Virus record (IMG/VR): IMGVR_UViG_3300021978_000001
Span: 256,001-320,000 of that record
DNA: 64,000 nucleotides
Strand: one strand, 5' to 3'
DNA from: a virus
Taxonomy: Duplodnaviria > Caudoviricetes
The stretch's first letter is position 1. The number at the start of each line of letters is the position of its first letter. Position numbers and translations under genes: made by a program. The notes under the pieces were generated by a model that made no database searches, was not told the origin of the DNA, and saw nothing but the letters and a program-made list of their open reading frames with translations. Positions 296 through 8,105 of this stretch are shown here, piece by piece.

Positions 296-796
296 TTACG
301 TTTCCTCCTTGCGTGGGGCCTCTTCCTCATCCTCTGTGGTGAGCAACGCCTGAAACTCATCAGGTTGATTGGGAAGCTGCTCACCTCGCAACCAATCCAG
401 GATACGCATATACCAGGGCGGCTCCGAGGCTTCGAGAACCCAGGTCAACGTTGCGAGATCGGGCGCGTTCTCTTCGAGCCACGACTCATCCTGGATAAAA
501 GCCTCGAAGCGCTCCAGCACCTCATCACGTGTGTGTTTTGCCTTGTAAAAAGGACAGGCACGCGCGTTCTCGACCGTATCACAGAGATTCCCCGGCCAGT
601 TTTGTATATCCTGAGCACCCAACATACAGAAACGCGCTCCCGCACCCGCACTCAAGACGCCTTCACGTTCTTCCGGCTCCTTGTAATTGTACTGGCAGTT
701 GCAAGGCGCCTTGCGTAAATGCTCTCGGAGCATCTCAGCCCGCAGTTCATAACGAACCCGGCGATACCTTCGATGAATTTCTGTCTCCTGGCGCAT
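296..796 (-). CDS. hypothetical protein (Cys-containing, acidic tail)
   Basis: 166 aa ORF tightly packed in the leftward operon. Confidence 0.7.
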   Translation of the reverse strand: MRQETEIHRRYRRVRYELRAEMLREHLRKAPCNCQYNYKEPEEREGVLSAGAGARFCMLGAQDIQNWPGNLCDTVENARACPFYKAKHTRDEVLERFEAFIQDESWLEENAPDLATLTWVLEASEPPWYMRILDWLRGEQLPNQPDEFQALLTTEDEEEAPRKEET

Positions 797-797
797 G

Positions 798-1439
798 CTA
801 CTCCTTGATGTGCTCTAGCACGAGACTCCCGTCTGTGCCCATTCTACCCTTGTACGCATGTGTCGCATGCTCAAGAAAACCCTCGTTGTGTGTAACCAAC
901 AAGACATGAACCCCCAGGCGTTCACACAAGCGCCTCAAGAACTCCCCACAAGTGTCCACATATTCGACACTGAGAGCGGCCAGGGACTCATCGAGGAAAA
1001 GGTATCGTGCCTGCTTTGCCTTGAGCAACACCAGCAAGCGCAACAACAAGCTCTCGATCGAAGCAACACCACCCCCAAACGATTCCAGGGGCGCACCAGC
1101 GCGTCCACCTTGCTCGGTCAAGAACTCGACGTGAACCTTGCCACGCTTCTGGGTAACTTCAATGCGAAAGGTTAAATCCTGGTCATAATAAATCGCCTGG
1201 AGCCCCTCGGTTACGAGCTTCGAGAAGTTCTCTGCGTAGTCATGCACGTGACGTTCGATCAGGTGCTTGAACAGTTCGCTTACTTGCTTGAGAACCTCCA
1301 GCTCTTCATCGAGATCGACCAGCTCTTGCTGCAACTCTGCTTCACGAGACAACAGATTAGCGTGCCTCTCTTCCAGGCGATGCGCCTGTTGCGTGAGAGC
1401 ACCCATGCGCGTCTCGAAGCGTTCAGATAAGGACGTCAT
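798..1439 (-). CDS. Rad50/SbcC-like ABC ATPase, C-terminal half
   Basis: Short coiled coil, then signature SFGGG, Walker B LFLDES, D-loop LAAL, H-loop LLVTHN; no Walker A. Confidence 0.85.
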   Translation of the reverse strand: MTSLSERFETRMGALTQQAHRLEERHANLLSREAELQQELVDLDEELEVLKQVSELFKHLIERHVHDYAENFSKLVTEGLQAIYYDQDLTFRIEVTQKRGKVHVEFLTEQGGRAGAPLESFGGGVASIESLLLRLLVLLKAKQARYLFLDESLAALSVEYVDTCGEFLRRLCERLGVHVLLVTHNEGFLEHATHAYKGRMGTDGSLVLEHIKE

Positions 1440-2605
1440 GCCAACCTCAAGCTCATCAGGGTCGTGAGGTTACACGAGAGATCTTCATCGCGCTGGTGGA
1501 ATTTGGCGTAAACAGGACCTCCCGTGTTCACTCCGACAGTGACCTCCCCAGAACCAAACTTGGACACCGCGAGGTTGAGCCATTCGATGTTCACGATCAC
1601 ACGCAAGGGGGTCCCCGGGTTGGAGACGCGCTCACGCTCCAGCACCATATCCACCGTACAAGTCTGCTGATCCGATACATCCTTAACCGCCAGCGTAAGC
1701 GTCCCCTCGCCCGCCTCGTGCATTGCCCCGAGGCTCAGAGTCAACTCCTGGTCTGTAGCTGCACGCACGGCGTTGAGAGCACCTAGCGCTTGCTTGAGCG
1801 CAGACAGATCGAAGCGCCAGATCTCTTCCTCATCGACCTCGGACCGCAACCCTGGAATTGACGCGGGTGTGAACTGAGGGATCGCAAACCCAAACATCGA
1901 ACCATCATCCCCATGCAAGAGATAGAAACTCCCGGTCGTCTCACACCGAAAGCGCTCGACAGAGGACATCCCCAGAAACTTGATGACCTTGGGAAGCTCC
2001 ACCTTTCCGACCTTGAATACGTCATCGCCTACCTCATAACCTTCGACATCCTTGACGTCGTAGATCGAGATCACGTGCGTATCCGAAGCAAAGAAGCGGT
2101 CGGTCTTGAACTCCGCGATCTGAAACTGGTTCGCAGCTTCATTGTTCGAGGTCTCCTTACCAATAGCTGTCCGCACGAAGCCAAGCCCCTTGGTAAAAGG
2201 CTCGACAGGTCCCGACACCAGCAAGGAAGCACCCTTCTGTTGCTCAGTGAAGTCAGGGAACGCCTCCACATCGAAGGAGGCCAGGAACGCCTTGGCGTCC
2301 TCACACGTCAGGTGCACACCATCATCGAGCGCTTCGATCTCGACGAGTTCCCCCTCGATGTTCGAGAGCCACCCGCTCAAGCGCGCTGCCTCGACTGCAA
2401 ACTTGCCCGAACCATGGATCGCTTCCGCGCCCACGGGCACACATGAGATAAAGATGTTGTCCGTGGTGAGCAAGCGCAGCTCCGACTGATCCAACACACG
2501 CTCGACAAGTACACAGGATGTAATCTGCCCCGCATCCTTGGACACCGCGAGCTTCGAGATCCCCAATGCCTGTTCGAGCAAGTCTTTGTTTATCGTGATA
2601 CGCAT
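1436..2605 (-). CDS. dnaN: DNA polymerase III beta sliding clamp
   Basis: 389 aa; N-terminus MRITINKDLLEQAL and C-terminal NIEWLNLAVSKFGSGEVTV...LMSLRL match the beta-clamp pattern. Confidence 0.8.
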   Translation of the reverse strand: MRITINKDLLEQALGISKLAVSKDAGQITSCVLVERVLDQSELRLLTTDNIFISCVPVGAEAIHGSGKFAVEAARLSGWLSNIEGELVEIEALDDGVHLTCEDAKAFLASFDVEAFPDFTEQQKGASLLVSGPVEPFTKGLGFVRTAIGKETSNNEAANQFQIAEFKTDRFFASDTHVISIYDVKDVEGYEVGDDVFKVGKVELPKVIKFLGMSSVERFRCETTGSFYLLHGDDGSMFGFAIPQFTPASIPGLRSEVDEEEIWRFDLSALKQALGALNAVRAATDQELTLSLGAMHEAGEGTLTLAVKDVSDQQTCTVDMVLERERVSNPGTPLRVIVNIEWLNLAVSKFGSGEVTVGVNTGGPVYAKFHQRDEDLSCNLTTLMSLRLA

Positions 2606-2608
2606 GCC

Positions 2609-2887
2609 TTACCCCTCGTAACGACCGAGCTGGTCTTCCATCTCTTCCAGGGCTTCCTCGAAGAGCGCCACTTCAGCGTTAAGGGCACGTTTCTTCTCTG
2701 CGAGGAGGTCGGAGAGATCTTTCAGCTCCCAACCATGCTCGCGCGCTTCGTCACGAAGACGACGCAACTCCTCTTGAGATGAGTTGAAGGTCGCGACCTT
2801 CTCCGCTCTCGTTGTCACAAGCGATTCACGCTTTTTACGCAGGGCAGAGATCTTGGCCTCCAACTCCTCTTTACTCAGGTCACTCAT
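2609..2887 (-). CDS. small coiled-coil protein
   Basis: 92 aa, almost entirely heptad-like E/K/L-rich helix. Confidence 0.8.
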   Translation of the reverse strand: MSDLSKEELEAKISALRKKRESLVTTRAEKVATFNSSQEELRRLRDEAREHGWELKDLSDLLAEKKRALNAEVALFEEALEEMEDQLGRYEG

Positions 2888-2955
2888 CTTCCATCACCTC
2901 GTGATCAGGGTCTTATTCGTGGTTCGTAGTGTGTTCGTAGGTCATATAAGCCGTC

Positions 2956-3870
2956 TCAATCCTCGACGACCTTACCCCCAAAGCCAATGAATGCTTCGTC
3001 TGTCTCTGTCTCGGGAACAACCTCGACGCCATTCTCGATCTTGTTCCAACGACGCTTGGCGCGTTTCTTGGTCAAGATGGCCTGGCGCTCGGGGCACATG
3101 TTCTCGAACTCGCAGTATTTGCAAGCCGAGCCCGAGGGTGTCGCGCGGAACCAGGTACGTTGGATCTTGGTGAAGGTATCCTGCACCTTGACACGCAACG
3201 CCGCGAGACGCTCGGGCGTCGGTTCGATCCAATCGAACGCGCGCTCACCTTCATCCGCAAAGTGGTAGAAGAAGAACCCGAGCTTGTCGGGTATCTTACC
3301 ATGCATGATCGAAAAAGCCAGTGCGTAGAACAGAAGTTGCTCTTCGTCCACATACTTTTCACGATGCTTGCTGGCCTTGCCGTCGATCAGCAGCAAGGTC
3401 CCATCCGCCTTACGGATCACGAAATCCACGCGCCCGAACATGAAGAAATTCTTCTCCAGGTGCGCTCGCACCGTTACTTCAGAGCGCGCGTAAGGCCCGA
3501 GCAAGCCGTGATCTTTGATGCCCTGGAGTACGCGAGGCACCATCTCCTCGCACATACCCAGGAGATCTTCCATCGTGTACGGGCAGGTCACGTCATCGAA
3601 GTTGACGTACTCGTTGTCCAGGTACTCGTAGAAATACTTGGGCACAAGATCCATGAGCGCCGACGATGTATCCGCCCCCTTACGCCACAGCTCGACGTTG
3701 TAGAAGTCTTCGTACACGCGTTGTACGACAGACCCGACCACAGCATTGTGCCTCGAATCAGGCACAGGAGGATCTTTCTTATCCACCTTGCGCCAACGAT
3801 AATGTTGAGGACACTCGTTGTAGAGCTTGTAGCTCGAATAGGAGAGCCAGTATTCTTTCCGCGCGCTCAT
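2956..3870 (-). CDS. PD-(D/E)XK nuclease, RecB/AddB/Cas4-like with probable Fe-S Cys set
   Basis: LSYSS...ECP, GRVDF...IDGK, QLLFYALA, C-terminal CKYCEFENMC. Confidence 0.85.
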   Translation of the reverse strand: MSARKEYWLSYSSYKLYNECPQHYRWRKVDKKDPPVPDSRHNAVVGSVVQRVYEDFYNVELWRKGADTSSALMDLVPKYFYEYLDNEYVNFDDVTCPYTMEDLLGMCEEMVPRVLQGIKDHGLLGPYARSEVTVRAHLEKNFFMFGRVDFVIRKADGTLLLIDGKASKHREKYVDEEQLLFYALAFSIMHGKIPDKLGFFFYHFADEGERAFDWIEPTPERLAALRVKVQDTFTKIQRTWFRATPSGSACKYCEFENMCPERQAILTKKRAKRRWNKIENGVEVVPETETDEAFIGFGGKVVED

Positions 3871-3886
3871 GCTTACCTCATATGGA

Positions 3887-4903
3887 CTAGGGCGTCGCTT
3901 TATCCAAATAGCGCAACGCTTTTTCTCGTACCTTCACCTCGAAGCCTTTCATGGCCTCGACGGTGGACCGCATATCGGACTCTTCCATGTCCACGGTCTG
4001 TGCAGCGAGCTGGTCGAGGAAATGCTCGATGTTTCGCTGCTCCTCTTGCAACTGTTCGTGCGTCACGAGGTCGAACACCTCATTCGCGGGTCGCACCTGT
4101 AGTGGGATAGCTTCGGTGATGAGCTTGACCTCACCTGTAGCCGGATCTTTTGTGATCTGGAGCCAGCCCACGCGAGGGGTCCGTTCGAGATTGTCATCCG
4201 TCAAGCTACCGCGCGTCATGGACCCAAGGTTGTAGAAGACCTTTCCTCGAACTTCCTCGATGCCCTGGTCGATATGCCAATGTCCAAATATCATGGCATC
4301 CGGTGAACACTCCGCCAGCTCGTGGTAAGACTGGACCTTCTCCTTGCCAAACCACTGCCCCCCTTCGAGAGAGGCAAACGTGTGTGCGCAAACAATCAAG
4401 ATGTCCTCGTCTCCACGCTCGATGTCCCACTCCTCGACCTCGAACTTGACCTTGTAGGGCAACCCCACCACGCGCACGTTGAGCGCTGAGTGTGGACCCG
4501 CGCCCATGCCTCCGCCTTCGGTGACCGTGAAGGTGTGATCTGTCATGCGCTCGAAGACACCTGTAGAAAAAAGCACCCCGAGCGGTTGTTGGTGAATGTA
4601 GTCCACGTTGGCATAAGGGAAATCATGGTTACCCGGATTACAATACACCGGACAGGGGTAGGTGCGGTGGAGATCTGCGACCCTGCGCACGAGTAGGTGG
4701 GAGTTGCGGCTGGCTGACTTGTTATGAAAGAAGTCGCCATTGTCGAGAATTGCATAGGCTTCACGCTCCCTGGCGATGTCCGAGATCTGCTTGAGCTTGT
4801 CGATGCAGGTCTGCGTGTAGTCATCACACCGGGACGCAGGCGCGCGATCACTGATATGAACATCCGTGCGAATCACAAAGCCCATCTTGATAAGACCACT
4901 CAT
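3887..4903 (-). CDS. Mre11/SbcD-like metallophosphoesterase nuclease
   Basis: TDVH, DNGDFFH, GNHD, GHWH motifs; adjacent to Rad50-like gene. Confidence 0.9.
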   Translation of the reverse strand: MSGLIKMGFVIRTDVHISDRAPASRCDDYTQTCIDKLKQISDIAREREAYAILDNGDFFHNKSASRNSHLLVRRVADLHRTYPCPVYCNPGNHDFPYANVDYIHQQPLGVLFSTGVFERMTDHTFTVTEGGGMGAGPHSALNVRVVGLPYKVKFEVEEWDIERGDEDILIVCAHTFASLEGGQWFGKEKVQSYHELAECSPDAMIFGHWHIDQGIEEVRGKVFYNLGSMTRGSLTDDNLERTPRVGWLQITKDPATGEVKLITEAIPLQVRPANEVFDLVTHEQLQEEQRNIEHFLDQLAAQTVDMEESDMRSTVEAMKGFEVKVREKALRYLDKATP

Positions 4904-6117
4904 GCTGCACCTGCCTTCATACTACGCTCACAGGTGGGACACACGCCTGCCTCATGCAAGAGATCGTGCAGTTCGGTATCGAGGCGCTCGATACGTTCAT
5001 CGAGGTCTGTCCGCGCATCCTGACAAGACTTCATGCATGACAGGGCGCGAGTCAAACGCTGTTGAAACCCCGAAAGCATCGCCACCTCTTCTTGCAAGGT
5101 TTCAACCGAGAGTACAGGCACTTCGAGCGTTTCCACCCCCTGGTAGGCTTTCACGAGTTGAAGCGAACGACGAGCGCGCGCGAAAAGCGACTGGGCATGA
5201 GCATACTCGGATAACATCTCCTGGAGCTTATCCTCTCCTGCGGGAGCCACCACATCAGCAACCCCCTGAAGAGCCTCCACGCGCCTCGTACAACGATCGC
5301 GCTCCTGAATAAGGGTCTCCAATCGCCTGATCTCCCCGAGCGCCTCTGTGTAGCTTTCCAGGGGCTCAGGCGAAGGGACTTCGATGTCTGCCACACCATC
5401 ATAGCGCGACACCACCTGGTGATGCCTGTTGTAGTTATCGACCAATCGCTCGACCGATACAATCTCACGCTCCAGGGAGAGCGCTTTACTCCAACGGTCC
5501 CGTACTTCCTGATACTGTCTCATATCTTCTTCGTAGGTCTCAAAGACTGCTTTCTTGGCTTGAACATCCGCGAGGTCTTTCGTGCGCACCTTTTTCGTCG
5601 CCTTGGCAGAGCGACGATCGGAGTCACACGACCGAAGCGCATCCTGCACCGTGGTAAGCCGTTCCACATCCGAGATGGCTTCCGCAGCAACAGAACCCTG
5701 CGCATCTAACAGGAATAGGGGATCGAATTGATCCGCCACCTGTACCGAGAGCTTCTGATCACGACCGACTTCCAGAGGGAAAAACCCCGCCTGCGCCACA
5801 TGCTCGGGGGCTCCGCGACCCACGCTCCGAAGTTCCTCCCCGTTGACATCGTAATCGTTGTAGCTGCCGCCCTTGCGCCAGGTAAGATCTAACGCCCCAC
5901 GTCCCTGGGAAGCAGGAACCTCAAGATGCACCTCGCAATGAGTAATGTCGTCACCTTCGCGCACAAAGGTATCGCCCTCCAGATTTCCCAGGGCGCCTGA
6001 CACCGCGCGAATCACCGCTGACTTCCCGATGTTGGACTTTCCTACCAGGACCGTGAGCCCCTCGATCTCCAACTCCGCGTGTGCGATGGATTGAAAGTTT
6101 GTGATCTCGACCTTCAT
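4900..6117 (-). CDS. Rad50/SbcC-like ABC ATPase, N-terminal half ending in zinc hook
   Basis: ITNFQS, Walker A GKSNIGKS, Q-loop, coiled coil, terminal CPTC; no signature or Walker B. Confidence 0.85.
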   Translation of the reverse strand: MKVEITNFQSIAHAELEIEGLTVLVGKSNIGKSAVIRAVSGALGNLEGDTFVREGDDITHCEVHLEVPASQGRGALDLTWRKGGSYNDYDVNGEELRSVGRGAPEHVAQAGFFPLEVGRDQKLSVQVADQFDPLFLLDAQGSVAAEAISDVERLTTVQDALRSCDSDRRSAKATKKVRTKDLADVQAKKAVFETYEEDMRQYQEVRDRWSKALSLEREIVSVERLVDNYNRHHQVVSRYDGVADIEVPSPEPLESYTEALGEIRRLETLIQERDRCTRRVEALQGVADVVAPAGEDKLQEMLSEYAHAQSLFARARRSLQLVKAYQGVETLEVPVLSVETLQEEVAMLSGFQQRLTRALSCMKSCQDARTDLDERIERLDTELHDLLHEAGVCPTCERSMKAGAA

Positions 6118-6152
6118 ACCTTAACCCTCACGTACTTCGTATTCATACGACA

Positions 6153-6176
6153 CGAGGCGGGACATCGCCCGCCTCG
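6153..6176. terminator. GC-rich hairpin downstream of recA
   Basis: cgaggcggg-acatcg-cccgcctcg, 9 bp stem; no clear U-tract. Confidence 0.4.
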
Positions 6177-6206
6177 ATCAAGCGCCTCGCTTCACACAAG
6201 CAGCGC

Positions 6207-7370
6207 TCACTCGTCGTCTTCGTAATCGTCTTCGTAGTCTTCCCCGTACTCCTCGTCCAACTCCTCGAAATCAGCGTCTTCCATCGTGAGCCCCTCGGAA
6301 CCCGTTTCGTTCCTGAGCTGCATCAAGAGGTGGTAGTAGTGCTCCTCGTTCTCGACCAAGTACGTGCGCAGCGCTTCCTTGCCCTGGTGCGATTGCTCTT
6401 CTCCCGAGGCGTCCACGAACTTGTACCATGCGCCAGACTTTTTGATGATCTTGCGCGCCTCACAGATGTCCATGATCGAACGCACCGAGTCGATACCTTC
6501 ACCGAAACGAATCACCATATCGGCGCTGTGATTGAAGTGCGAAGACACCTTGGTCTTGGTGATGGTTGCGCGCGTGATCCTCGCGACGGCCTGCTTCTCC
6601 TTTTTACGCGTCAGGTCATTCACAAACCCCGTGTCATACTCGTATCGCAAGGGCTTGAGGCTAATGCGCAGCGAAGAGTAGAACTTGAGCGCGACACCAC
6701 CCGAGGTATCTTCGTTGGGGCCTGGATCATACTTACTGGTCTTGATGCGGCTGCGAAGCTGGTTGAGGTAGATGATCGACGTGCCCGTGCGCTTGAGCAC
6801 AGGCACCAGACGACGCAAGAAGTTGGACTGCAAGCGCGCGAGCAGACCAATCTGTCCCGACTCGGACATCTGCCTCTCGTGGAGGTTCTCGGGGACCATG
6901 GCGCTCACCGAATCGACGATGATCAAATCGACCCCGGCTTCTGCGAGCGCGGAGATGATCTCAGCACCCTCCTCCCAGGTGGCGGGCATGTAGAGGTCCC
7001 ACTTATCCTCTGAGTAGTCGATCCCAAGGTTCTGCGCGTAAGCGTAATCGAGCGCGTTCTCATAGTCGAGGAAGCAGACCGTGCCTCCCGCCAACTGAGC
7101 CTGCACCGCGACTTCCAGGGCCACCGTGGTCTTACCCGAGGAGTACGGACCATAAATCTCGATGATACGACCCTTGGGGATACCAGGACACTGACGCTCC
7201 CCTCCATTGACGCGGTTACCCCCGATGAGGTGATCGAGGATAGGTGAACCCGTCGAGATACAATCATGCACCGGGGCCTTGGTAGGGTCCAGGACATGGC
7301 GGTTGTTCTTCATATCGACGGCCTTGTTTTTCTTCAGGGCCGCGCGTGCCTTTTCAAGCGTGCTGCTCAT
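6207..7370 (-). CDS. recA: RecA recombinase
   Basis: Walker A GPYSSGKTT, IIVDSVSAM, NQLRSRI, GGVALKFYSSLRI, KKSGAWY; acidic tail. Confidence 0.97.
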   Translation of the reverse strand: MSSTLEKARAALKKNKAVDMKNNRHVLDPTKAPVHDCISTGSPILDHLIGGNRVNGGERQCPGIPKGRIIEIYGPYSSGKTTVALEVAVQAQLAGGTVCFLDYENALDYAYAQNLGIDYSEDKWDLYMPATWEEGAEIISALAEAGVDLIIVDSVSAMVPENLHERQMSESGQIGLLARLQSNFLRRLVPVLKRTGTSIIYLNQLRSRIKTSKYDPGPNEDTSGGVALKFYSSLRISLKPLRYEYDTGFVNDLTRKKEKQAVARITRATITKTKVSSHFNHSADMVIRFGEGIDSVRSIMDICEARKIIKKSGAWYKFVDASGEEQSHQGKEALRTYLVENEEHYYHLLMQLRNETGSEGLTMEDADFEELDEEYGEDYEDDYEDDE

Positions 7371-8105
7371 TCAGTGCTCCTGTTCGTCCGATTCGTCGGC
7401 TTCGTTGTTTTCGTCGTTGTTTTCGTCAGCGTTCTCGTAGAGCGAATCATACTGCGCAGAGGGATAATCAATGTACTTGCCGTCTTCGCCTTCATTGAAG
7501 ATGTACCCCTCGAAGCGTTCCTTGCCCGTCTTACGTGACACGGTGTTCTTGGTGTACATGTCCTGCTCGTAATCCAGGAGATCGTCCTCCGAGATGTGCC
7601 CACGGATAAGTAGCGCGAAGCGTGAGGCCATAAAGCCACAGATGCCTGCATCAGCCACATTGTTGTTGAAACGGCCTTCGTAATCGAAGATCTCCAGGAA
7701 GAGGTCCTTCATGTCTTGCTTGGACATCTTCCCCTTCTCACCCAGGCGGCGCCTGGCATAGGCTTTGAGTTGGGAAGGCAGGTACAACACAAAAGGAAGC
7801 CTCGCATCCAGCAAGACTTCCCAAATATCCATATACAGAGCATACAAGCCCAGCGAATAACTGGCGCTGAAAGGAGGGTGTTCGATGCCCACGAAGTCTA
7901 TCCCAGTACCCTCGTGGTGTTCGGCTTGAATGAGCGCAGCGAGGCTTTCTCGCAGACTCTTGTAACGCCATGGCATCGGGGTTCGCTTGTTGGTCTTGAA
8001 GGTACCGTGCTTCAAATGAGTAGCGCGATCCCCATCACCCTCGATCGTATCGAGGAGTACCCAACCAAATCCCGTCAATGACGGGTCCAAACCCAGAATA
8101 CGCAT
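7371..8105 (-). CDS. ruvC: RuvC-like Holliday junction resolvase
   Basis: MRILGLDPSLTGFGW, GIEHP, NVADA catalytic motifs. Confidence 0.8.
   Translation of the reverse strand: MRILGLDPSLTGFGWVLLDTIEGDGDRATHLKHGTFKTNKRTPMPWRYKSLRESLAALIQAEHHEGTGIDFVGIEHPPFSASYSLGLYALYMDIWEVLLDARLPFVLYLPSQLKAYARRRLGEKGKMSKQDMKDLFLEIFDYEGRFNNNVADAGICGFMASRFALLIRGHISEDDLLDYEQDMYTKNTVSRKTGKERFEGYIFNEGEDGKYIDYPSAQYDSLYENADENNDENNEADESDEQEH

Follow-up and report, generated by a model that had tools for sequence, protein, structure and literature searches.

Organization of the locus

The window analyzed here is a stretch of 64,000 nucleotides (positions 256,001 to 320,000 of IMG/VR record IMGVR_UViG_3300021978_000001) from a phage genome that is complete, with 437,490 bp and terminal repeats. 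Its minus strand carries, in order, RuvC, RecA, a Rad50 N-half, Mre11, a Cas4-like nuclease, a small protein termed s, a sliding clamp, a Rad50 C-half and a Cys-rich ORF:

7371..8105, minus strand: RuvC-like Holliday-junction resolvase, which heads the conserved gene string (phrog_159, E 2e-18)
6207..7370, minus strand: RecA/UvsX-type recombinase, directly upstream of the N-half (RecA, E 5e-52; phrog_97)
4900..6117, minus strand: Rad50/SbcC N-half, 405 aa (AAA_23/AAA_15; phrog_16465, E 1e-16)
3887..4903, minus strand: Mre11/SbcD-type nuclease, 338 aa (Metallophos, E 4e-15; phrog_100, SbcD-like; TIGR00619 sbcd, E 7e-5)
2956..3870, minus strand: PD-(D/E)XK / Cas4-like nuclease, 304 aa, with C-terminal cysteines (PDDEXK_1, E 1e-23; cas4, E 2e-6)
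2609..2887, minus strand: small helical protein s, 92 aa, candidate third piece of the split Rad50
1436..2605, minus strand: beta sliding clamp homologue, 389 aa (phrog_947, E 2e-19; dnaN TIGR00663, E 7.5e-9)
798..1439, minus strand: Rad50/SbcC C-half, 213 aa (phrog_15167, E 3e-19)
296..796, minus strand: conserved Cys-containing ORF of the "o" family, 166 aa, following the C-half

The start of Mre11 overlaps the stop of the N-half by 4 nt, as does the start of the C-half the stop of the clamp. The two halves are 3461 nt apart, and the gap holds Mre11, the PD-(D/E)XK/Cas4-like nuclease, s and the clamp homologue, just as the first-pass annotation had described nuclease and clamp genes interleaved with a divided Rad50. 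The string RuvC-RecA-N-Mre11-nuclease-s-clamp-C is kept in 45 contigs, and the pairing of N-half and Mre11 is conserved across viral loci. The PD-(D/E)XK nuclease keeps its position in 62 loci, and in 64 the C-half is followed by an "o" homologue; the "o" ORF of the window has no match in Pfam, PHROG or NCBIfam.

The N-half carries the head lobe, a modular arm and the hook

Rad50/SbcC is normally one chain, whose antiparallel coil folds back at the hook. The N-half has an N-lobe with the Walker A motif GKSNIGKS at residue 26 and the Q-loop at Q130, followed by an arm that leads to a CPTC hook at residues 393-396, and the stop codon comes nine residues on. Walker A, Q130 and the hook cysteines C393 and C396 show no variation among 57 homologues. 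Residues 156-401 align to positions 218-446 of the 878 positions of archaeal Rad50 NF003034 (E 7e-8), and structure comparison showed that the head fold resembles the N-terminal chains of Rad50/SMC heads, with VIA Z values of 10-12 and an rmsd of 2.6-3.9 Å over 120-130 residues against Rad50/SMC/RecF N-lobes. A Mre11/SbcD partner, as expected of a Rad50, is encoded alongside. The chain does not fold back into an intramolecular antiparallel coiled coil, the N-half ending just past the hook.

The arm had been read as one outgoing coil of ~200 aa. AlphaFold2 predicts instead four helices (141-238, 253-283, 295-324 and 338-390) with Pro-containing loops between them, and profile comparison identified three arm segments as sequence repeats; the arm is a string of ~44-aa helix-loop repeats, not one coil. 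The arms of relatives have two to five Pro-containing loops, and the distance from Walker A to the hook is mostly near 320, 364 or 408 residues, in steps of ~44. In 103 of 104 distinct N-half relatives a CxxC lies inside the last 70 residues, in 102 of them within 25 residues of the C-terminal end, and at least two extra Cys/His residues directly follow it in 66. A CxxC at the tip of the arm is expected of a Rad50 zinc hook, and here it is a predicted zinc site.

One way to complete such an arm is a second N-half, with two arms running parallel and in register, one zinc held by the C-terminal CxxC motifs, and s placed elsewhere or capping the tip. In-register pairing tolerates the variable number of modules seen in the distance classes, whereas a fixed-length antiparallel partner does not; the hook sits at the chain end in nearly all sequences (102/104); and the AlphaFold2 model of the N-half has a pTM of only 0.40, so intrachain packing is not confidently predicted, despite high confidence for its helices. 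However, homodimerization leaves both the conservation of s and its place beside the N-half unexplained, and in the 66 of 104 relatives with further Cys/His residues the zinc site could be formed within one chain. We consider it possible, but doubtful.

The C-half carries the complementary lobe of the ABC head

The C-half consists of an 80-residue N-terminal helix and an ABC C-lobe with signature (FGGG at 121), Walker B (LFLDE at 147-151), D-loop and H-loop (TH at 183-184), so that the full C-lobe set stands on a separate polypeptide. FGGG, DE and TH are invariant among 24 homologues. In the AlphaFold2 model (pLDDT 92) the N-terminal helix spans residues 4-83, the last ~30 of which pack on the lobe; by this estimate only ~50 residues form a free helix, which bears out the earlier remark that the coil of this half is short. 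Profile search against the PDB found SMC and Rad50 heads (E 6e-6 and 7e-3), and Foldseek matched 9a9j_B, 1f2t_B and 5dac_B at E about 2e-7; the fold resembles the C-terminal chains 5h66_B, 9a9j_B, 1f2t_B, 1ii8_B and 3qkr_B. Stand-alone C-halves form a large family, with 2888 cluster representatives at E<=1e-10 and 4538 at E<=1e-3; the best 150 of the 4538 are all 135-324 aa long. The complementary motif sets, each invariant in its own family, support one split Rad50.

ABC heads and hooked arms also occur in defence proteins, and the halves might belong to an SMC-like defence system (Lamassu LmuB-like, MADS mad3-like or Gabija/OLD-like) in place of a recombination-type Mre11-Rad50. Among PADLOC profiles, LmuB matches both halves (E 3e-9 for the N-half, E 5e-4 for the C-half) and mad3 the C-half (E 1.5e-11). 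However, these matches cover only the shared ABC/SMC head and hook. Mre11 adjoins, the phage has no SbcC-like genes besides the halves, and they sit in the core string kept in 45 contigs, here within a complete phage genome. Among the surrounding genes no effector-type (LmuA/LmuC) neighbour was found, and the context is a phage recombination/replication operon. SbcCD is carried by nearly all jumbo phages (PMC7824862). Altogether, we judge a defence role to be very improbable.

The split is a widespread natural layout

A search for the same division in related genomes found the cut in 57 viral IMG/VR contigs, one bacterial chromosome and four phage lineages that are cultured or catalogued. Searches with either half lead to one set of five phage records, from four different phages, each of which encodes the halves as separate genes. 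The spacing between the halves ranges from 3.5 kb to about 200 kb. The proposal that Rad50/SbcC is encoded here as separate N and C genes, cut after the hook, is thus borne out by the ORFs, by motifs found where they had been placed and by the conservation of the cut.

An artefact of sequencing or assembly, or a recently broken pseudogene, would also place two parts of Rad50 in separate frames. We found no evidence in support of this reading, and its probability is practically negligible: the halves are separated by four full genes, neither half is damaged and their catalytic motifs are invariant, and the same cut recurs in cultured phages, in a finished bacterial chromosome and in dozens of independently assembled sequences, at identities of 25-68%. 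The split is not an artefact, because the genome is complete (437 kb) and holds no SbcC-like gene other than the two halves, because the cut recurs and because the C-half family is large. The layout goes far beyond chance or assembly error and is widespread; our literature search found no description of a Rad50 split after the zinc hook.

Protein s, a conserved predicted helical hairpin that adjoins the N-half or Mre11 in three rearranged lineages

Protein s comprises a helix of ~46 aa, a G-aromatic/aliphatic-(D/E)-(P) turn, a second helix of ~34 aa and a nearly invariant C-terminal E-x-x-L-x-x-Y/F, and its ESM Atlas model is a helical hairpin. One match per locus was found in 66 loci. Its length is 84-99 aa, and 53 distinct sequences align without gaps except for one 6-aa insert in the turn. 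The product of 2609-2887 shares the length, the helix-turn-helix shape, the C-terminal motif and the place within the split-Rad50 module. An HMM built from the clade of the window alone finds gp7 of Bacillus phage 0305phi8-36 (E 3e-11), s98 of Humisphaera borealis (E 9e-6) and gp180 of Tunturi_5 (E 2.5e-3), all at Z=5000. Gp245 of Microbacterium phage Magritte is a weak match (E 0.07, or 2e-5 with a wider model), whose assignment rests on position and shape.

Comparison with hhalign aligned helix 1 and the turn of s with the hook-proximal helix and GVCP of the N-half (probability 91.5%, E 8.5e-7), against 20.7% for the reversed profile and at most 31% for twenty column shuffles; the arm units U0-U3 reached at most 5%. 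The profile of s resembles the hook-proximal helix with a cysteine-less hook turn. It also matches the N-terminal helix of the C-half (91.8%), and its PDB matches are generic coiled coils; the likeness to arm pieces could reflect coiled-coil periodicity.

The position of s was examined in three rearranged lineages, where it adjoins the N-half or Mre11; the C-half is found at another place in two of them, and the clamp in two or more. In 0305phi8-36, s directly follows an Mre11-N fusion, with the clamp 23 kb and the PD-(D/E)XK gene 35 kb away. In Tunturi_5, it directly follows the N-half; the C-half and an annotated clamp are 107 kb away, and a PDDEXK_1 search of the genome gave no match. The H. 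borealis chromosome has the order N-Mre11-s, with the C-half 197 kb away. The N-half of Magritte has no CxxC and lies 33 kb from s, whose neighbours there are the PD-(D/E)XK nuclease and the clamp.

These positions bear on whether s is an accessory, for example an adaptor, of the sliding clamp or the Cas4-like nuclease, its place by Rad50 being mere operon order. It always follows the PD-(D/E)XK gene in the clade of the window and in Magritte, and it precedes the clamp gene, directly in nearly all loci of that clade and with one gene in between in Magritte. Its nearly invariant C-terminal motif presumably resembles clamp-binding peptides, which offers a lead only; however, its three residues are spaced as on a helix (i, i+3, i+6), and it may be just the end of helix 2. 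Moreover, no clamp or PD-(D/E)XK gene is near s in 0305phi8-36 and H. borealis, Tunturi_5 keeps s by the N-half in a genome with no PDDEXK_1 match, and in loci L071 and L072 the stretch from s to the C-half lacks a clamp gene. An accessory role is unlikely, and s is likely a conserved third piece of the split Rad50.

The first-pass annotation had suggested a tripartite Rad50 in which the 92-aa protein supplies the missing return strand. Its constant membership in the module, its arm-like profile and its persistence beside N-half or Mre11 speak for the tripartite part. It is not the return strand of the whole arm, since its length is fixed while the arm varies by whole modules. It could serve as return strand only for a constant, probably hook-proximal, part, and most of the arm is left with no known partner even when s is counted.

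Proposed assembly of the split Mre11-Rad50 complex

We propose, with a probability of roughly 0.7, that this naturally divided Rad50, cut behind the zinc hook, forms with Mre11 a working SbcCD-type complex for the processing of DNA ends, and that the 92-aa protein is its dedicated partner. From the N-half would come the lobe with Walker A and Q-loop as well as the complete outgoing arm with the CPTC hook at its end, and from the C-half the signature/Walker B/H-loop lobe plus about 50 residues of free helix. The two would join non-covalently into one ABC head, while the C-half helix would pair, in antiparallel orientation, with the initial stretch of the N-half arm, forming the arm base on which Mre11 may dock. 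Beyond the base, the arm would have no return strand from its own chain and consist of the ~44-residue modules, whose number varies among relatives. Protein s would most likely bind near the hook, where the arm is constant, as a helical hairpin that resembles the hook but lacks its cysteines, and would there supply a local return helix. We infer this assembly, including the docking site of s and any stoichiometry, from the genes, motifs, single-chain folds, conservation and synteny described above.

More tentatively, the complex might represent a distinct plan of SMC-like arm: a single modular outgoing strand that runs to the hook and finds its partners on other chains, with the short C-half helix at the base, a hook-derived hairpin lacking cysteines at the tip and perhaps the sister arm in the middle. 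We judge this less likely than not; if true, an intramolecular folded-back coiled coil would not be obligatory for Rad50 function.

How a signal travels from the arm and hook of Rad50 to the ATPase head and Mre11 is still debated. To our knowledge, the arm of every studied Rad50 is an intramolecular antiparallel coiled coil, and therefore the roles of its two strands are inseparable. Here a large natural family, from huge phages and some bacteria, places the strands on different proteins and sets arm length in whole modules, and a small hook-like protein may replace the return strand at the tip. With few recombinant proteins, this family makes it directly testable which of the two strands is required, whether two folded-back coils have to be joined by the hook, and what effect arm length has. 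The split is carried by the cultured phages 0305phi8-36, Tunturi_5 and Magritte. The assignment also matters for annotation, the halves now being labelled 'exonuclease', 'ATPase', 'chromosome segregation ATPase' or 'hypothetical'.

Comparison with known systems

Canonical Mre11-Rad50/SbcCD (T4 gp47-gp46, E. coli SbcCD, P. furiosus) shares with the split form the ABC head motifs including the D-loop, the helical arm with a CxxC zinc hook, the adjacent Mre11/SbcD phosphoesterase and the recombination/replication setting by RecA/UvsX and the clamp; in T4, gene 45 likewise adjoins 46/47. They differ in that the split chain stops 3-25 residues past the hook, the C-lobe is a separate protein of 200-235 aa, and a same-chain return strand is absent beyond about 50 residues. 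In addition, the arm is built of countable ~44-aa helix-loop repeats, and a conserved helical protein of ~90 aa goes with the split form; the small T4 ORFs 46.1 and 46.2 are unrelated to s.

In a study of Mre11-Rad50 fusions, one P-loop NTPase segment 'was not observed' in 0305phi8-36 gp8 (PMC3175470, Yoshida et al. 2011), and the searched passages of that paper do not report gp5 as the missing segment. Gp8 is Mre11 fused to an N-half of the split family, and gp5, three genes downstream with the s homologue gp7 between, is a stand-alone C-half; the ATPase segment is missing from the fusion because gp5 encodes it separately. In the window, Mre11 is a gene of its own.

The best structural matches of the halves are the N- and C-terminal chains of two-chain heads in the PDB (1F2T/1F2U, 1II8, 3QKR; SMC 5H66), which we take to be engineered laboratory constructs that assemble into an active ATP-binding head. 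In those constructs the arm and hook are deleted, whereas the phage cut is natural and keeps the outgoing arm and hook on the N-chain. Lamassu LmuB and RloC likewise combine an ABC head with a coiled-coil arm and CxxC hook, with weak profile matches. As far as known, both are single chains in defence or tRNase contexts, whereas the phage has an Mre11 partner, a core operon and a split chain.

Gene organization of the split Rad50 module

The window covers bases 256,001-320,000 of a 437,490-bp virus record that bears direct terminal repeats and has a completeness rating of 100%. A tightly packed run of genes occupies 296-8105 on the minus strand, from a RuvC-like resolvase to a Cys-containing ORF (termed o) that follows the gene for the C-terminal half of Rad50/SbcC.

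Genes of the split Rad50 module in the window
7371-8105, minus, RuvC-like resolvase, 244 aa
6207-7370, minus, RecA/UvsX, 387 aa
4900-6117, minus, Rad50 N-half, 405 aa
3887-4903, minus, Mre11/SbcD, 338 aa
2956-3870, minus, PD-(D/E)XK / Cas4-like nuclease, 304 aa
2609-2887, minus, helical protein s, 92 aa
1436-2605, minus, beta-clamp homologue, 389 aa
798-1439, minus, Rad50 C-half, 213 aa
296-796, minus, Cys-containing ORF o, 166 aa

The stop of the N-half overlaps the start of Mre11 by 4 nt, as does the stop of the clamp with the start of the C-half, which suggests translational coupling at both junctions. Members of family o (130-280 aa, Cys-containing) lie nearly always 3' of the C-half gene, with downstream homologues in 64 loci (e.g. 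L003:10638-11138); in Tunturiibacter phage Tunturi_5 the homologue is 1.75 kb downstream. The family has no match in Pfam, PHROG or NCBIfam, and may be an additional partner of the split-Rad50 module.

The two halves correspond to the two lobes of a Rad50 head

In the N-half, Walker A lies at residue 26, the Q-loop glutamine is residue 130 and a CPTC hook spans 393-396, with the stop 9 residues after CPTC, and the C-half contains the signature FGGG, Walker B LFLDE and the H-loop TH. None of these motif residues varies across the 57 N-half and 24 C-half homologues aligned. Single-chain AlphaFold2 models of both are confident (N-half, pLDDT 84.5; C-half, 92.2). The structures closest to the two models are the N-terminal and C-terminal chains, respectively, of Rad50 and SMC heads (PDB 1F2T/1F2U, 1II8, 3QKR, 5H66, 9A9J), heads engineered as two chains that come together in assembly. 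The C-half has a single helix at residues 4-83; judged against known Rad50 heads, its last ~30 residues are estimated to sit on the lobe, so that ~50 would remain free to pair with the beginning of the arm on the N-half. We strongly infer that the two halves reassemble into one Rad50.

At the hook, the protein of the window (C-terminus at 4900-4941) and 24 other relatives have no further His or Cys beyond CxxC. In 66 of the 104 distinct N-half relatives, at least two extra His/Cys lie within ~20 residues after CxxC (e.g. CPxC...HxH and CPFCG..HE..SC; L012:10001-11368, L053, L065). Together with CxxC they possibly provide four zinc ligands on one chain, which makes it a question whether two chains share the hook in every lineage.

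The split is conserved among phages and in one bacterial chromosome

The first-pass annotation, which read Rad50 as split between two or even three genes, is borne out for two: separate halves are found in four distinct phages, 57 IMG/VR contigs and one bacterial chromosome. The order RuvC-RecA-N-Mre11-nuclease-s-clamp-C-o recurs in these 57 contigs, with the exact string at 45 loci. Searching by tblastn with either half retrieved the same five phage records (four distinct phages, Bacillus phage 0305phi8-36 accounting for two of the records), each of which encodes the halves as separate genes. Gene order in a 485-kb uncultured phage is that of the window; the halves lie apart in Microbacterium phage Magritte and are 107 kb from each other in Tunturi_5. 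In the finished chromosome of Humisphaera borealis, N-Mre11-s occupies one site and a lone C-half lies 197 kb off. IMG/VR single-sequence scans with the N-halves of 0305phi8-36 and Tunturi_5 returned 0305phi8-36 itself or nothing.

In an exhaustive profile search, the C-half family comprised 4538 cluster representatives at E<=1e-3, of which 2888 remained at E<=1e-10 and 229 at E<=1e-30; the lengths of the 150 best matches among the 4538 all lie between 135 and 324 aa. N-half homologues at full coverage span 308-466 aa, CxxC is present in 103 of 104 distinct N-half C-termini, and the chain ends at most 25 residues from CxxC in 102 of them. The ESM Atlas holds viral N-half clusters with 62-398 members, in addition to Mre11-N fusion clusters with 73 and 360. 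A second, full-length SbcC was not found in the complete genome, where phrog_77 (SbcC) matches only the N-half and the C-half. Conservation of the split in phage records and viral contigs rules out an assembly artefact or a pseudogene, and the split is old.

Several loci deviate in gene length or content. ORFs about twice the usual length encode Mre11 in L033 (700 aa) and L037 (688 aa), the N-half in L063 (706 aa) and the C-half in L065, L066 and L068 (328-440 aa); they could represent inserted elements such as inteins, fusions, or over-long calls by a simple ORF finder. The few longer C-half matches (P0092, P0187 and P0107) are probably not fusions of s to either half, for their low-complexity Arg/Ser/Pro tails resemble miscalled frames; fused forms may occur elsewhere. 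The H. borealis Mre11 homologue beside the N-half (L085:9322-10986) has a Pro-rich N-terminal extension of ~250 residues that is probably disordered. In the 485-kb relative, RecA and the N-half are separated by a thymidylate synthase gene (L002:3589-4620), and the N-half and Mre11 by ~2.8 kb of cargo that includes a vWA-like ORF and a Cys-rich HNH-like ORF (L002, 5968-8806). Such insertions fall in the N/Mre11 or Mre11/nuclease gaps and are rare within nuclease-s-clamp-C.

The N-half arm is modular

The outgoing stretch of ~200 aa had been taken for one coil, a description that does not hold: AlphaFold2 shows four helices (141-238, 253-283, 295-324 and 338-390), parted by loops of the type Y/L-x-G-V-x-x-h-x-h-P. 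Profile-profile comparison revealed that the three middle arm units are mutual repeats (probability ~96%, E ~1e-9), to which the last unit is related at a probability of 82-89%. Relatives differ by whole units, with the distance from Walker A to the hook mainly near 320, 364 and 408 residues, and have 2 to 5 Pro-containing loops. In profile comparison, the arm aligns to positions 218-446 (of 878) of archaeal Rad50, a span that closes at the hook. The N-half model has a pTM of only 0.40 and thus commits to no packing of the distal arm helices; in fold searches on the modeled arm only 141-246 was readable, as one straight helix.

The profile of protein s resembles the hook-proximal arm

The HMM of family s finds exactly one match per locus in 66 loci. 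The proteins are 84-99 aa long, and 53 distinct sequences align gaplessly but for one 6-aa insert at the turn. Each comprises a ~46-aa helix, a G-x-(D/E)-(P) turn and a ~34-aa helix, and ends in a nearly invariant E-x-x-L-x-x-Y/F; the ESM Atlas model is a helical hairpin. Known families (Pfam, PHROGs, NCBIfam, PADLOC, PDB) gave only generic coiled-coil matches, tblastn recovered only s itself, and the matches of 5 of 10 family s members to phrog_77, at E 0.03-0.14, are not evidence. No similarity was found to T4 gp46.1, 46.2, 45.2 and 47.1.

Alignment by hhalign matched helix 1 and the turn of s to the hook-proximal helix and G-V-C-P of the N-half over 45 columns (probability 91.5%, E 8.5e-7), placing G-x-D-P of s opposite G-V-C-P of the hook. 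Controls scored 20.7% for reversed s, at most 31% for twenty column shuffles (median ~0.15%) and at most 5% for arm units U0-U3 against s. Helix 1 also matched the N-terminal helix of the C-half at 91.8%, a score that coiled-coil periodicity can inflate. We read these two matches as a sign that s may derive from Rad50 arm sequence, with the same caution on periodicity and with the PDB matches being generic. On our reading of the boundaries, helices 1 (~46 aa) and 2 (~34 aa) fit, in reversed order, the two final helices of the N-half (53 and 30 aa), as required of an antiparallel partner at the arm tip.

An HMM built from the window's clade alone (Z=5000) detected s in distant lineages: 0305phi8-36 gp7 (E 3e-11), a 98-aa protein of H. 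borealis (E 9e-6) and Tunturi_5 gp180 (E 2.5e-3).

Neighborhood of s across lineages
0305phi8-36: Mre11-N fusion, s, gp6, C-half; clamp 23 kb off, PD-(D/E)XK 35 kb off
Tunturi_5: N-half then s; C-half and annotated clamp 107 kb off, no PDDEXK_1 match in the genome
H. borealis: N, Mre11, s; C-half 197 kb off
L071 and L072: s then C-half, with no clamp gene in between
Magritte: nuclease, s, one gene, clamp; hookless N-half 33 kb off

Overall, s travels with the split Rad50, mostly with the N-half and Mre11, the sole exception being Magritte. The N-half homologue of Magritte (gene 155, 350 aa; L011:4989-6041) lacks CxxC in the 70 C-terminal residues and so is a hookless member. Magritte gene 247 (L077:7006-8244) matches the sliding-clamp phrog_947 (E 1e-33), and the label "ASCE ATPase" it carries is probably wrong. 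In the window's clade and in Magritte, the genes next to s would also suit a role as adaptor of the clamp or the nuclease, a live alternative that the arrangement in 0305phi8-36, Tunturi_5 and H. borealis weakens.

Of the tripartite Rad50 proposed earlier, with the 92-aa protein as its return strand, the split and a dedicated third small protein are supported, whereas the length arithmetic is not. Because s is fixed in size and the arm changes by ~44-aa modules (length correlation 0.14-0.21), s could span no more than a constant portion of the arm. Among the aligned sequences, s and the hook-proximal helix do not covary in length, since s has no indels. The variable middle of the arm could instead pair in parallel, in register, with the sister arm; as this would tolerate any number of modules, we consider such pairing the leading rival or complement. 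The middle could also have no partner at all, or be bound by multiple copies of s. That the 92-aa protein docks on the split Rad50 is a reasonable hypothesis.

Comparison with known systems

No description of a natural Rad50/SbcC split was found in the literature searched. In Yoshida et al. 2011 (PMC3175470), 0305phi8-36 gp8 is listed as an Mre11-Rad50 fusion with one P-loop segment unobserved; the missing segment is gp5. Iyer et al. 2021 (PMC7824862) describe SbcCD as near-universal among jumbo phages; where they speak of splits, the subject is RNA polymerase, the alpha subunit of DNA polymerase III or the grouping of phages, and not SbcC. The split Rad50 is a real and conserved feature, a variant of a known machine that the searched literature does not describe. 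In phage T4 (L084, 31.9-36.4 kb), the clamp gene 45 likewise lies near genes 46 and 47, so the clamp-Rad50-Mre11 neighborhood seems to be an old trait of phage replication/recombination modules and not peculiar to the split form.
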